From positions 57,970,001 through 58,034,000 of the forward strand of contig OX597817.1 in assembly GCA_951406725.2 (NCBI GenBank): DNA of 64,000 bases. Reading direction: 5' to 3'. Source of the DNA: Octopus vulgaris. Taxonomy: Eukaryota. The position numbers were made by a program, and so were the translations under genes. Below the pieces are notes generated by a model. The model did no database searches and had not been told where the DNA came from. It was given only the letters and a program-made list of their open reading frames with translations. Shown in pieces: positions 25,820 to 60,762 of this stretch. The first letter of the stretch is position 1; the number at the start of each line of letters is the position of its first letter.

Positions 25820-26037
25820 ACTATGTGGATGTGACTTACATGGGAAGTGATAAAGACGTGAACAACGGCAGCAGTAGTCATGGCGGGAACATCAGCGAAA
25901 GTCTGGCATTCAATGTGACCACCACTACGACATCCATCAGCTTGAATTTAAGTCGGAGTCAAATCTCGTTGAAAGACCACGAGATTTTCGTAGCACGTGA
26001 AGGACAGCTATTTAAAGAGAAAATCAACAGTATTCAG
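25820..26037 (+). CDS. ADAM/ADAMTS-like (M12B) gene, exon A, prodomain: (x)[72 protein letters not shown]
   Basis: Branch-like ctaac plus acceptor ttttactttcAG; donor CAG|gtagag; phase 1 in, 0 out. LAFNV...ISLNLSRS resembles the reprolysin propeptide beta strands. Confidence 0.8.
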
Positions 26038-27762
26038 GTAGAGAACCACGTTCAATTGTGTGTGTGTGCGTATGTGCATGCATGTGTGTGTGTGAAAGAA
26101 AGACAGGGGGAGGGAGAGAAGAGAGAGATACACATTCAAAACACACACACACACATATATATATATAGTATAAATAATATATGCATATATATAAATGCAT
26201 ATATACATACGTATATGTACATACATCTATACATACATACATACATATATGTACATACATCTATACATACATACATACATACATACATACATACATACAT
26301 ATATATATATATATATATATATATATATATATATATATATATATATATATATATATATATATGCATATGTGGGCACAGGACGTCATGATACGAGTACAAC
26401 AAAAAATACGAAGCACGAGTACATAGAATATGAGCTATTTTTTCTAACAGCAAAAGGCACAAATGGACAACAAATCAAACAACATAAAGAACGACCCTTC
26501 ATCAGTTGTTGGCTGTTTTCCTACTCTCGTATTTCGAGCATTTAACAACATATAATGTGTGTGTGTGTGCGTTCATATATATGTCTCTCTGTTTCTCTCT
26601 CTGTTCCTCTCACTGCTCCTCTCTCTCTCTCTCTCTCTCTCTCTCTCTCTCTCTCTCTCTCTCTCTCTCTCTCTGTCTTCATATATAGATATTTGTGTGT
26701 GTGTGTGTATGTGTGTGAGTGTGTGTGTGTGTGTGTGTGTGTGTGCTTGTGTGTGTGGCAAGAGAAGCAATTATACATTATTTCTTAGAAACAGAACATT
26801 AAAAGGAAAAATTATAAAAATATTATTATAAACATATTGTATGAAGAATTGATTTCCAAAAGAGCCCAGCAAATAAAAACTAAAAAACCTTGAAAATCAA
26901 TAAAATCTGATTTAATTTGAAGCGGAGATTAAAGCAATAATTGATAATTAAGCAGAGTTAACAACCACTAAAGTCATTAGGGAGAAGATTATTAATTAGA
27001 TTTATACGCATATAGAGGAGGGACATCATTATCATCATCATCACCATCATCATTATCATCATCACCATTACCATCATTATTCATCTTATAATTTACTACC
27101 ACCATCCTCTTCATCACTGTGTTCTTCGTCATCAGTATCTTCATCATCATGTTCGTCGTCGCCACCACCACCACCACCACCACCACAACAACAACAACAA
27201 CAACACCCACCACCTACTCAGTCATCATCCTCATTATCATGATCGTTGTCATTGTCGTCGTCGCCGCCACTGCCACCACCGCTACTTCTGCTACTCTCAT
27301 CATCATCATCATCATCATTACTATCATCATCATTTCATTGAGCTCCCTCAACACCAGAAATGTAAGAAGAGAACCACCGTCCTTTCATTTCCAGGCATTA
27401 AGCCGGACCTTTTCCTTTATGGCATGTCAACTCTGAAGAATTCTTGAATCTTCAAATTATATCCCCTTCTCAAATGGAGCTGGTCTTAATTGCTATTTGG
27501 TAATTATGATACATCCTCTAGGGGTGGAGATATTTTTAATAAATCAAGAATTTATGTTACATGGTATTTGATATACCTATATTTGTGTTGTTCAAAGACA
27601 TGCCATTGACCTTCTCTTAGTAAATTTTTGTGTAAGATTTAGTTGTATATAAGTATGTCTCACTAACGAGGTCAAATAACAATGGAACATGTCCGGAATT
27701 GTTTCCCTGCCGCCAAAAATCAAATTCACTGTAGTGTTTTTTTATTAAATTTTCCCTTGCAG

Positions 27763-27849
27763 GGTGTAGAGAGATGTTACCAAGACAAAGAAAATGGAGC
27801 TGTGGTTATTGCTCTTCCCGCAGAACCTTCTGGGACTACATTTGAATTG
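27763..27849 (+). CDS. M12B gene exon B, prodomain: GVERCYQDKENGAVVIALPAEPSGTTFEL
   Basis: Acceptor ttttcccttgcAG; donor TTG|gtatgt; 87 nt, phase 0/0; CYQ-type propeptide motif. Confidence 0.85.
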
Positions 27850-28099
27850 GTATGTGCTTGTTACCTTTGACCTTCCAGATTTGATCTTTGTATTTTTATA
27901 CACATAGAAGATACAGACATGCAGGAAGTAAATAGACACCTTTAATTTTCAAAATCTTTCATTTGATATTAATTGGTTGAAGGAGAAGTTTTCGTCTAGC
28001 TACTCGTCCATAATACCCAAGCTTATGCAGATATGTAATACACGTTCTTGGACTAACTTCTAGCTGTTTTGCAATGTCAGAAGCCTTCAAACGGGGTTC

Positions 28100-28345
28100 G
28101 TTTTCTACAATTCACTTCAAACAGCAAAGCTTCCTTTCCGAGGGCCCAGGTCGGCCGGGATGAAGATCTGTTGATTCTTTTCCTTGGCTTTTGAATTGCA
28201 CTATAATTCTATTAACAGTAGCAAGAGGAATTTGAAGATTTTTGGCAATTTTTTGCTCGCTAAGACCTGCCTCACATTACCCAACAACACGACCCCTTTG
28301 AAAATCTGACAGTTCTGTTGAATTTTTTGTGCGTGGCATGGTTAC
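28100..28345 (-). mobile_element. Tc1-like transposase N-terminal (HTH) remnant
   Basis: Minus strand encodes approximately [31 protein letters not shown]...GRPGPSERK. Confidence 0.6.
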
Positions 28346-29351
28346 TCTTCGCAAATGTTTAATATAATGGCACCTGGAATGAAAAGGAATAATTACATTG
28401 TAAATTCTACACCGCTGAAAACATTAAGACGCTTAGGTCATAAATTTTGAAAATTAAAGGTGTCAATTTACTTCCTGCATGTCTGTGTATATACATACGT
28501 AAACACTTACACACATATATATACATATATACACGCATGCATAACATACATACATTCGATATATTTACAAGCATACATATATATGTGCATACACAAACCC
28601 AAATCATTGTTACTGTGTTGTTAAGTCGTAAATAAACCATGATCAAGGAGGCTTGTGTTCAAAAGCGTTCTAGCTGTGATCAACCCATTTTGTTTCAGGT
28701 ATAATCTATCCAGGACTACATAATTCTCGATGTGCATGTCTCTTCACCTTTTTAAAAACTAGGTTGCAATTTCGCGGAGATTTGTGACAAAGTGTAGCAA
28801 AGAGAGTTCAAAGTGTTGATGATAAATAAAAGCCGTAAAGGACCGCGATAAAGGAGGAAGATGAAGGAGCCCAATAAGGAGAGGCATTATGTCTGATTTG
28901 AGACCAAAAGAAATGATTTCCTTGAGTGTAATGCGCAATAAGGCAGCTATATTTGAGGCGAGGGTATTCAATGTTTCGTACTTACAACATAAGGCTTTTC
29001 AGAGAAGACCGCTGAATATACATGCATACAGTAGTGACTGTTTCACTTTCCATACTATGACAATATCCGATCTAATTTTTCTCATACGTATAACAGACCA
29101 TGGAACTCAAACAAGAGTCTGATATTCCTCATCTTTTTATTTACACAGAGGACTGGTAAATCAAGCTAACGGATGTATTACTTTCTTGTTCTTTTAGCAC
29201 GTTGAAAAGGCGTATTTTAACTAAAAATATCGAGACCACTTAGATAAGTCTAACGTAGCATAAGCATTCCAATATCTTTGTTATTATTATGGATATTTAA
29301 TATTTTATCCACATTGCTATATAACCGCCTTTAACATGGATTTTCTATATA

Positions 29352-29830
29352 CAGTAGAACCTCGGTTTACGAACAACTCTGATCACGAATAAATCGTACT
29401 TTATCTCCTGTCTTTCTCATATTCATTTAATACAGTAGTACCTCGGTTTACGAACGCCTCTGATCACAAATAAATCGTGGTTTTTATATATCTTTACCCA
29501 TATATATATATATAAGAGAAAAAAGTGTATGTACGCCGCTATATATATGTATAAAATAAAATACAAAATGGGACAAGAACGCAAAACATCTGGACAACTA
29601 AATGATACAAAAAGGGACCACAAATGACCCGTCCGTGTTTTTTTGTATCGTCTATCTGGATGTTTTGTTGTCCCTTTTTGTATCACCTAGTTGTCCTGAT
29701 GTTTTGCGTTTTTGTCCCATTTTGTATTTTATTTCATATATATATATATATATATATATATATATATATATATAAAGCACGATTTAATCGTGATCAGAGT
29801 TGTTAAAAAAAAAATACGAGGTACTATTGT
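29352..29830. mobile_element. Tigger-like MITE with duplicated left end and a nested fold-back insertion
   Basis: cagtagaacctcggtttacgaac occurs at about 29352 and 29433; the inverted counterpart is at about 29778-29830. Confidence 0.6.
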
Positions 29831-29899
29831 ATTCAGAAATGATTGAAGCAAACTACAATTTTATATGCAGGGATTGAATAAAATAATGGAAATGCATTG

Positions 29900-59339: not shown

Positions 59340-59550
59340 GGGCGGCGAGCTGGCAGAATGGTTAGCACGCTGGGCGAAATGCTTGCGGTATTTCGCCCGT
59401 CGCTCCGTTCTGAGTTCAAATTCCGCCGAGGTCGACTTTGCTGTTCATCCTTTCGGAGTCGATTAAATAAGTACCAGTTACGCACTGGGGTCGATATAAT
59501 CGATTTCATCTGTTTGTCTGTCCTTGTTTGTCCTCTCTATGTTTAGCCCC
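59340..59550 (+). mobile_element. SINE family B copy
   Basis: Head ggcggcgagctggcagaa and full body. Confidence 0.85.
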
Positions 59551-59828
59551 TTTTGTTAACATTGCATTCCACAGCTTTCTATAGTTCCACAAAACCATTC
59601 CAACACCAAATAATTCCACATTGATAATTCCATCAAATTGTGTTCTTCAGCAGAACACTTTCTTTCACGTTGCTGCAGTAAATGAGTGACCCTACTATGG
59701 ACTGGTGTCCAGTTCAGGAGAAATCTTGTGATCTCGGTCATTTATATGCTACAGAAATCAGGAAACCTCGGACTCGGGACAGTAATGACCATGGGTTGAT
59801 GATAACGTGCCTAATATATCAATATGAC

Positions 59829-60113
59829 CAGTGGTTCTCAGCCGAGGTCCACATAAACCTTGTGAATGTGTGTGGGGGGATCCATATAAAATTTTGTTGC
59901 TAAAATTTATTTTAGGACACAGATAATCCTTTAATCCTTTCATATCTCCGATAAACTGGTTTACTTCTGCAGCACACAAAATATTTAAAAAATGTTTAAA
60001 TACAATTCCTAATTATGTTTAATTATAAATATGCAATATATCTTAAACATCGAATGGCTATGAGAACCCATCCGAGTGGAATAAGAATTTTTAAAAATGG
60101 TTGAGAACCGCTG
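59829..60113. mobile_element. hAT (Charlie-like) MITE
   Basis: TIRs cagtggttctcagcc / ggttgagaaccgctg; right flank atctagac fits the NTCTAGAN target preference. Confidence 0.7.
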
Positions 60114-60177
60114 ATCTAGACTAAAATACGCTACCTTATCGAGTGCCAATGTTTTCTCATTTTCCCACCCGGTTTAG

Positions 60178-60286
60178 GTATAACGTACATGAGTGGTATA
60201 TGCAGTGGTAAATATTCCGCATCTGTTGTGAACAGTGGATCTGAAAACCTTGGTATTATCACCTCAACCCGCCTCCTGGGGCACAG
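60178..60286 (+). CDS. M12B gene exon I, degenerate zinc motif: GITYMSGICSGKYSASVVNSGSENLGIITSTRLLGH(S)
   Basis: Acceptor ttttcccacccggtttAG; donor CAG|gtaatc; phase 1/2; aligns by eye to G.Ay.g.iC...yS.svved.g......aHElGH. Confidence 0.9.
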
Positions 60287-60642
60287 GTAATCCTTTAATC
60301 CGTTCTTTTTTATACATTGTAATAATCTATAATTTATTCTACCACACCCGACACATCCAGCGTAAATCTTTTTTTTTTTTATGAGAAACAGTTAGTCAAG
60401 ACATTCGACAGTATATCGAGTATATATTGCAACAAAATTGTAACGGGTGGATTTTCATGTCTACGAACACTTAAACATTTGAATATTATCATATTGCTTC
60501 AACAAGTTTGGCCACGTCTGTCAACAGACTGACCGCATTTAAGTGTGTCAGAAACGATTCTTTAGATTCTTCGTGATTTTCGAGCCAACTAAAAATATCT
60601 CAACTTTCATATTGTGTTCTCTCTTCATTGCGTGTTTTGCAG

Positions 60643-60762
60643 CTTAAGCGCAGGTTACGTGGATATACCGGGTTGTACAACAAAGGATGATGGATTTACA
60701 GGAGAAACATTTGGTCTGTGTTCTATAAACTCCATAAAAAACAAAATCGAGAAACTATCGAG
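60643..60762 (+). CDS. M12B gene exon J, end of protease domain: (S)LSAGYVDIPGCTTKDDGFTGETFGLCSINSIKNKIEKLS
   Basis: Acceptor ctcttcattgcgtgttttgcAG; donor GAG|gtaagt; phase 2/2; C...F.LCS...I corresponds to the C...FS.CS...i end of M12B domains. The gene continues downstream, next exon not identified. Confidence 0.85.

Follow-up and report, generated by a model that had tools for sequence, protein, structure and literature searches.

Within a 64,000-nucleotide stretch of Octopus vulgaris DNA (contig OX597817.1, positions 57,970,001 to 58,034,000 of the forward strand; hereafter the window), we identified ten exons of a gene for a maintained pseudoprotease, in which the catalytic residues have been lost while the reading frame, splicing and fold have been kept. 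Judged by its sequence, the protein belongs, as a dead member, to a mollusc-expanded, ADAMTS-like M12B family. At the position of the zinc motif the joined exons read RLLGH/SLSAGYVD, so that the first His, the catalytic Glu and the third His are lost and one His remains. Zinc catalysis in metzincins needs the ligands of the HExxHxxGxxH motif together with a Met-turn, and with a single remaining His the octopus protein would not be expected to support it. The initial annotation had proposed a maintained, non-catalytic, secreted M12B protein, and this proposal is supported by Pfam matches, by two spliced junctions and by a dead motif that is identical in orthologues. We hold it highly probable that the gene encodes a maintained non-protease.

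The dead motif (60270..60658, plus strand) is interrupted by a phase-2 intron, 60287–60642. Its halves lie in exons 9 and 10, where the numbers 8, 9 and 10, in these as in the junction and duplication results, count exons within the window. Exon 9 (60178..60286, plus strand) encodes the GITY..GIC segment and the active-site helix, with RLLGH in place of HExxH (Arg379, Leu380, His383), and exon 10 (60643..60762, plus strand, 120 nt) encodes SLSAGY, with Tyr389 at the position of the third His. The codons are CGC for Arg (60270), CTC for Leu (60273), CAC for the retained His (60282), AGC for Ser (60647) and TAC for Tyr (60656). The Arg, Leu and Tyr substitutions thus stand as first described, and the stretch from the motif to FGLCS contains no Met. 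Strict spacing places Tyr389 at the third ligand; a large alignment shifts this column one residue later, and neither register contains a His. Among 149 non-orthologous relatives, 129 keep HExxHxxxxxH, 15 are without a ligand and five are truncated. In three of the 15 (P0012, P0071 and P0151) the model appears to have missed the exon that follows HExxH, which leaves 12. A further change that had been counted as damage, Gly to Ser, we reject as such: the position is occupied by G in 91, S in 27 and N in 8 of the 129 intact relatives, and the ADAMTS consensus HEXXHXBG(/N/S)BXHD, as stated in the accessible text of PMC4448532, permits Ser.

The distance from the third ligand to F..CS is 17 residues, compared with a median of 32 in relatives (range 24–41, n = 120), and the Met-turn is kept in 119 of the 129 intact relatives. 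An intact octopus paralogue, L048 on C5, has the same intron phases around the motif with an exon of 165 nt against the 120 nt found here; by this comparison, a 45-nt (15-codon) deletion within the exon took out the Met-turn loop. The furin site is also missing, with neither KR, RR, KK or RK nor RxxR occurring before the catalytic domain in any of the four orthologues. Relatives mostly retain the site, which is strict (RxK/RR) in 84 of 108, loose in 18 more and not furin-like in the remaining six, and the strict form is also present in all three intronless octopus paralogues described below. Three NxS/T sequons in the linker between prodomain and catalytic domain are kept in P0010. In the cysteine-rich module, a pair of Cys residues present in six of seven aligned relatives has been lost on both sides together, as expected for a protein that still folds.

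The ten exons were recovered from splice-site scans of the window, each with an AG acceptor and a GT donor and with matching phases. Joined, they comprise 1165 nt, or 387 whole codons without a stop, in good agreement with the approximately 388 codons claimed initially; the other two frames contain 25 and 23 stops. This coding part corresponds to residues 37–423 of an 870-residue protein (870 open codons) encoded by 19 exons, of which the window covers ten. The signal-peptide exon lies approximately 1.7 kb upstream of the window and eight exons follow downstream, the last approximately 54 kb past its end. Identity to the Octopus sinensis model P0005 is 386 of 387 residues in the window, and the full 870-codon frame differs from it by one residue. 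The gene had been presented as hidden, which it is not, as public models exist in several octopods: Octopus bimaculoides, O. sinensis (P0004, P0005) and Argonauta hians (P0006, P0007), nearly all named 'uncharacterized'.

All of the window exons lie on the plus strand. The first, exon 2 of 19 (25820..26037), encodes prodomain residues 36–108 with four N-glycosylation sequons. The prodomain continues through 27763..27849 (residues 109–137), which contains its sole Cys, Cys113, and ends in 38517..38679 (residues 138–191). Cys113 is unpaired in the prodomain and missing from seven aligned non-cephalopod relatives, and could form an inter-chain bond. The exon at 49671..49779 (residues 192–228) encodes the linker, without a furin site and with its three sequons, and the first M12B strand, YVVEMLMVAD. 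The M12B domain then extends over 51704..51797 (residues 228–259), 53181..53261 (residues 260–286), 57238..57383 (residues 287–335, including DHSILFT) and the 38-nt exon 8 at 59012..59049 (residues 335–348) before exons 9 and 10.

The complete protein comprises a signal peptide (approximately residues 1–23), a prodomain to approximately residue 190, the linker, an M12B domain (212–432), an ADAMTS cysteine-rich module (448–508), two six-Cys repeats (520–595), a Thr-rich stretch and a basic tail (approximately 683–870). An optional, in-frame 30-nt exon lies approximately 14.3 kb past the window end and is included in isoforms P0004 and P0008 and not in P0005; it sits between the last helix of the dead domain and its closing Cys, and contributes one Cys. 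A small Cys-closed hairpin is predicted at residues 683–697, where the otherwise disordered tail begins.

The initial annotation had called for profile and structural checks of the M12B assignment, and both came out in its favour. The full-length protein scored above the curated cut-off for Pfam Reprolysin (30.4 bits for P0005 against a cut-off of 20.8; 31.6 bits for P0010) and for ADAMTS_CR_2 (36.4 bits against 27.3, residues 448–508). Matches were confined to full-length proteins, with none for five single exons or for the truncated model P0001. An AlphaFold model built on a 106-sequence alignment had a mean predicted local distance difference test (pLDDT) score of 69, with values mostly of 85–96 over residues 60–150 and 210–390 and below 50 in the tail. 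Foldseek matched it best to ADAMTS-1 (2v4b, E = 7e-15), and the best match by sequence was 6qig (E = 1.3e-8). In VIA, the best match was the pro plus metalloproteinase unit of ADAM17 (Z 23.3, root-mean-square deviation (rmsd) 4.4, 322 residues aligned, covering residues 27–435), with ADAMTS-1 (Z 21.2, rmsd 2.5, 191 aligned) and ADAM22 (3g5c; Z 20.9, rmsd 2.4, 189 aligned) among the other matches. The predicted domain has the five-stranded metzincin fold with its active-site helix, at Z 20–23 to ADAM17, ADAMTS-1, ADAM8 and ADAM22. The modelled fold is thus that of a reprolysin pro plus catalytic unit followed by an ADAMTS cysteine-rich module.

Beyond this core, the full 870 residues gave no Pfam match to TSP1 or spacer domains, contained no WxxWxxC and showed no Pfam match for canonical disintegrin or EGF domains. 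The highest hydropathy after residue 30 is 1.2, and there is no membrane helix. The six-Cys repeats, whose Cys spacing is reminiscent of PLAC domains, had no Pfam match to PLAC or ShK at E up to 10; an ESM Atlas lead to ShK-like structures, at 0.75, falls below the reliable range, and the stand-alone model of the repeats has a pLDDT of 40. The tail had no match in the ESM Atlas. It contains 36 Arg and 15 Lys against five Asp/Glu in 187 residues, with a pI of approximately 12. A similarly basic C-terminus occurs in just two of 114 relatives of at least 600 residues; a hydrophobic or membrane segment ends 45 of the 114, and the octopus pseudoprotease is without one.

Transcription was assessed from sequencing runs, of which 24 were listed for the first window exon. 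The exon was present in full in 16 of these, from five studies, with 14 of the 16 guessed to be RNA; none of the run records is listed as RNA, the tissue labels are coded, and the four listed runs with almost none of the exon are no evidence of silence. For the motif region (58980–60850) we took one run per study, four of the 24, and found the junctions between exons 8 and 9 and between exons 9 and 10, the latter splitting the motif, joined at GT..AG in all four runs and thus in four studies. The supporting transcript contigs measured 2844–3191 nt and differed from the genome at no letter across exons 9 and 10. Recoding had been said not to rescue the motif, and none was seen over these exons in the four contigs, in which minor editing would be invisible. 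The other seven window junctions rest on identity to public models and on genomic fragments of a distant orthologue, which cover several exon edges. Within the same genome, the exon 9 peptide was located at just two places, both flanked by introns and on either side of an assembly gap, and a processed copy is for that reason an unlikely source of the transcripts.

These two places belong to an 8.2-kb repeated block, part of which lies within the window (59057..64000, plus strand) and carries exons 60178–60286 and 60643–60762. The first copy ends approximately 3.3 kb past the window; with numbering continued past the window end, 59057–67301 recurs directly at 67402–75602 after a gap of 100 N, with 98.6% identity. 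The second copy reaches approximately 11.6 kb past the window end, and its copies of exons 9 and 10 are identical to those of the first. Differences between the copies consist of scattered substitutions and microsatellite lengths, and the listed contig pieces contain exon 9 and exon 10 once each. The repeat is likely a haplotype overlap at a scaffold join, that is, a false duplication. Public model P0003 is garbled here, with exon 10 present twice and intronic sequence where exon 9 belongs. An alternative exon that supplied an intact HExxH would undo the reading of a dead protein; none occurs on the plus strand between exons 7 and 11, and a family profile run over 464 kb matched, at E under 0.5, only exons of the pseudoprotease gene.

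The dead motif, RLLGHSLSAGY, is identical to the letter in P0002, P0005, P0006 and P0010, which represent O. bimaculoides, O. sinensis, Argonauta and, in P0010, a presumably more distant cephalopod, down to 81% identity. Against P0010, the motif region is identical at 59 of 64 residues (92%) and the Cys repeats at 80 of 81 (99%), both above the protein mean, with the tail at 74%. When we simulated neutral point mutation to 19% protein divergence, none of 500 frames stayed open (mean 8.6 stops), and at least 59 of the 64 motif-region residues were kept in six of 500 simulations. The orthologue frames, open at up to 19% divergence, thus speak against the young pseudogene that had been named as a possible outcome. 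At the 5% distance of Argonauta, 41 of 500 simulated frames were open, so that the Argonauta pair alone is weak evidence. Between Octopus and Argonauta the prodomain, catalytic domain and Cys region of the dead gene are 95, 95 and 97% identical and its tail 92%, compared with 51, 91 and 75% for the same three regions in the intact paralogue pair L045/P0156. In this protein-sequence comparison, the dead gene is the better conserved of the two. Trees place a long stem of 1.87 changes per column before a short crown of 0.28.

A total of 470 representatives matched the family at E up to 0.001. The octopus protein shares its prodomain, M12B domain, ADAMTS_CR_2 module, six-Cys repeats and Thr-rich stretch and falls within the family in trees, with an ambiguous sister group. 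Its closest named relatives come from chitons, limpets and bivalves, among them those of Lottia (P0019), Liolophura (P0013, P0024), Argopecten (P0020) and Sinanodonta (P0011), and have the same domain order at 25–36% identity, with a common Cys framework and CEYGD repeats. Most relatives keep the zinc motif, the Met-turn and the furin site, whereas the octopus protein is without all three and has the basic tail. Knowledge of the family seems limited to automatic annotation. At least five of its members are encoded in the genome studied here: the pseudoprotease gene, intact genes on C5 and C17, and two dead intronless genes on C24 and C8. The C5 gene (L048, 2.417 Mb) bears introns whose phases match those of window exons 9–10, and reads HEIGHSLNSKH with the Met-turn present. 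The dead intronless genes, L046 (C24, 7.04 Mb) and L047 (C8, 26.46 Mb), read KMIAQNIGLTA and QLIGRSVGIPF in open frames of 646–668 residues, keep the Met-turn and the furin site, have hydrophobic C-termini, and group with the intact intronless L045 on C17. A retrocopy lineage probably gave rise to them as pseudoproteases in their own right, anchored at the surface.

Dead members also occur in bivalves and other relatives (P0015, P0054, P0078, P0079, P0061, P0086, P0093, P0106, P0123, P0124 and P0073), with motifs such as QELGRSLGSRL in oysters, QQVARSLGSRD in Dreissena and other relatives, and RQIAHSFGVDH in Solemya. The dead bivalve members form a conserved pseudoprotease clade. We compared topologies by approximately unbiased (AU) tests, using quick trees of 30 rows chosen from 136 with the motif columns dropped, in which long branches are present and groups were defined once a first tree had been seen. 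Within those bounds, a single origin for all dead members was rejected (p = 0.0001), as was an origin shared with the two dead intronless octopus paralogues (p = 0.005); an origin shared with the dead bivalve clade was not rejected (p = 0.50). That clade adjoins the intact P0019 (limpet) and P0027 with a support of 88, a placement that favours separate losses without proving them. The independent, lineage-specific loss suggested at the outset is therefore supported in part, with respect to the intronless pair. With three of the five members identified in this genome dead, and with the oyster, Dreissena and Solemya clades, this ADAMTS-like family may have been a repeated source of pseudoproteases in molluscs.

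The non-proteolytic ADAMs are anchored in the membrane and carry disintegrin, Cys-rich and EGF domains. As in the octopus protein, ADAM11/22/23, ADAM2/7/18/29/32 and C. elegans UNC-71 have kept the M12B fold and lost the zinc motif, and they likely act by binding. In ADAM22, LGI1 is bound at the surface of the dead domain, and UNC-71 depends on its own, according to the accessible text of PMC11266112, in which all nine tabulated M12 pseudo-ADAMs keep the Met of the Met-turn. The octopus protein, by contrast, is predicted to be soluble and has neither Met-turn loop, furin site nor disintegrin-EGF-membrane body. The analogy with ADAM11/22/23 drawn initially is apt in that the protein is dead and kept, and fails in that a membrane helix and a disintegrin-EGF body are both missing and the family is ADAMTS-like. 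Vertebrate ADAMTS proteases (ADAMTS-1, -4, -5 and -13) resemble it over the catalytic domain and the disintegrin-like/cysteine-rich module, and, as is predicted for it, are secreted without a membrane helix; unlike them, it is without TSP1 repeats, spacer, furin site and zinc motif. Each ADAMTS is predicted to be active and furin-processed and 8 of 21 human ADAMs are inactive, as summarised in the accessible text of PMC4448532.

ADAMTSL proteins and papilin are secreted, non-catalytic matrix relatives of ADAMTS that have no pro or catalytic domains and keep TSP1 repeats. The octopus protein is the reverse, with pro and catalytic domains present and TSP1 absent. MIG-17 of C. elegans is an active protease without TSP1 repeats. 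By description its secreted ADAM-like architecture is like that of the octopus protein, from which it differs in being active; the term 'secreted ADAM-like' for MIG-17 is found in the accessible text of PMC11266112. Literature searches by gene id, accession and topic returned no description of the gene, which unsearched supplements and subscription journals may list, and it was not found in the readable supplement files of PMC9712504 or in one of PMC9815951. In the literature searched, then, the gene has been modelled automatically and not recognised as dead; pseudo-ADAMs are known, and a soluble, permanently pro-form variant without a Met-turn was not found in print.

The joint loss of two zinc histidines, the Glu, the Met-turn and the furin site predicts a secreted pseudoprotease in pro-form. 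As for its role, we favour a secreted, matrix-tethered binding adaptor that is predicted to remain in pro-form, with a probability of about one half. The signal peptide, with no other hydrophobic segment, would direct the protein to secretion. Given the absence of a dibasic site and the three-sequon linker, the prodomain would stay attached, and in the model it superposes with the catalytic domain on zymogen ADAM17 as one unit. The rebuilt active-site region and the two six-Cys repeats, the most frozen parts of the protein, likely bind a protein partner, and the Thr-rich spacer and the Arg/Lys tail of approximately 190 residues may hold it on polyanions, heparan sulfate for example. We speculate further, regarding the full scenario as rather unlikely, that coleoids turned a secreted ADAMTS-like protease into a permanently locked zymogen: in a burst of change the zinc ligands, the Met-turn loop and the furin site were lost and a polycationic tail was gained, after which the rebuilt dead domain froze as a specific ligand-binding module. 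Such a product, soluble and anchored by heparan sulfate, would organise neural or connective matrix in convergence with ADAM22–LGI1. It would be the first ADAMTS-type catalytic module that is dead and yet plays an essential part, from a family that repeatedly gave rise to mollusc pseudoproteases.

Several points weigh against the adaptor and the maintenance on which it builds. The case for selection consists of protein-level identity, and the contrast with the intact paralogue assumes that P0156 is orthologous to L045, its sister in trees. A spread across coleoids is presumed from the 81% identity of P0010, which we take to be from a more distant cephalopod. Six of the 108 relatives also have no furin-like site, and other proteases could cut the linker; the alignment behind the model, composed mostly of active relatives, biases it towards a zymogen shape. 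In ADAM22 the ligand site is on the surface and not in the pseudo-active site, as described in the accessible text of PMC11266112, so a conserved cleft is not necessarily one that binds a ligand. Finally, the tail is predicted to be disordered and has many dibasic sites, which fits peptide release equally well.

Peptide release is the core of one alternative, in which convertases cut the tail at dibasic sites to free cationic peptides with antimicrobial, adhesive or signalling roles while the folded front serves as a secretion chaperone. A strict furin-type RWRR (852 in P0005, 849 in P0010) and several KR/RR pairs in a tail that is disordered yet 74–92% conserved speak for it; the folded domains, however, are better conserved than the tail (99% in the Cys repeats, 92% in the motif region), which a mere carrier would not need, and we consider it improbable. 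We rate as unlikely, if less so, a decoy or regulator that binds the substrates or inhibitors (TIMP-like) of active paralogues, or pairs with them, and would thereby modulate proteolysis. The genome has at least two intact members that could be so regulated, on C17 (L045) and C5 (L048), and the accessible text of PMC11266112 names the control of active relatives among the roles of pseudopeptidases. With the Met-turn loop under the cleft deleted and the prodomain predicted to remain attached, though, the substrate groove has likely been changed or is covered over, and a path of at least 2.8 separates the protein from the nearest intact row, which puts it very far from its paralogues. A gland secretion, whether saliva or venom, egg coat, skin or sucker mucus, or shell or beak matrix, could contain the protein as a structural or accessory component, a role that would suit a secreted-type, sequon-rich, cationic protein. 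Reprolysin is discussed among octopod posterior-salivary-gland genes (PMC7656900), and an ADAMTS adt-1-like protein is common to four lophotrochozoan skeletal matrix proteomes (PMC13425148), but the accessible text of neither source names the octopus pseudoprotease gene. This role is improbable too, a shade more so than peptide release: venom and egg-coat proteins usually evolve fast, and this gene is more conserved than its active paralogue.

Weak or altered catalysis, either with His383 and Asp391, Glu402 or Cys113 as unusual metal ligands or after editing of the Tyr codon to Cys, draws on the invariance of His383 and its surroundings in four orthologues. We judge it very unlikely with the general-base Glu replaced by Leu, the Met-turn deleted, and the four transcript contigs, which would hide minor editing, showing no difference from the genome over both exons. 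A young pseudogene, an artefact of splicing or assembly, or an intact motif supplied by an overlooked exon could be suspected from the duplication of exons 9–10 across the assembly gap and from the garbling of P0003 at the same spot. Splicing in all four runs, 870 open codons and orthologue frames open to 19% divergence, against none of 500 simulated, make such an origin extremely improbable, as do the lack of a plus-strand HExxH from exon 7 to 11 and the confinement of the exon 9 peptide to the two places flanking the gap.

The M12B pseudoproteases known so far are ADAMs of the membrane in which the Met-turn persists; the octopus case is a soluble ADAMTS-type module from which catalysis, pro-cleavage and the Met-turn loop have jointly disappeared. 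It offers a clean case of the conversion of an enzyme to a scaffold, and the protein is a candidate for a matrix component specific to cephalopods. Annotation stands to be corrected: automatic names and Pfam label a dead protein a protease, and one public model is garbled by an assembly overlap. Counts of octopus reprolysins in venom or degradome surveys may include dead members.

The window also contains repetitive and mobile-element sequence. A very abundant repeat, presumably SINE-like (short interspersed element), occurs at 59340–59550 and also at 3813–4176 and 30406–30774, with a summed contig depth of up to approximately 750,000, and 183–185-bp tandem pairs lie elsewhere in the window. 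Coding fragments at 7597–8100 and 46710–47057 we take to be PIF1/Helitron-helicase-like, and those at 16091–16861 and 56584–56781 are presumably reverse-transcriptase-like and mariner-like, respectively.

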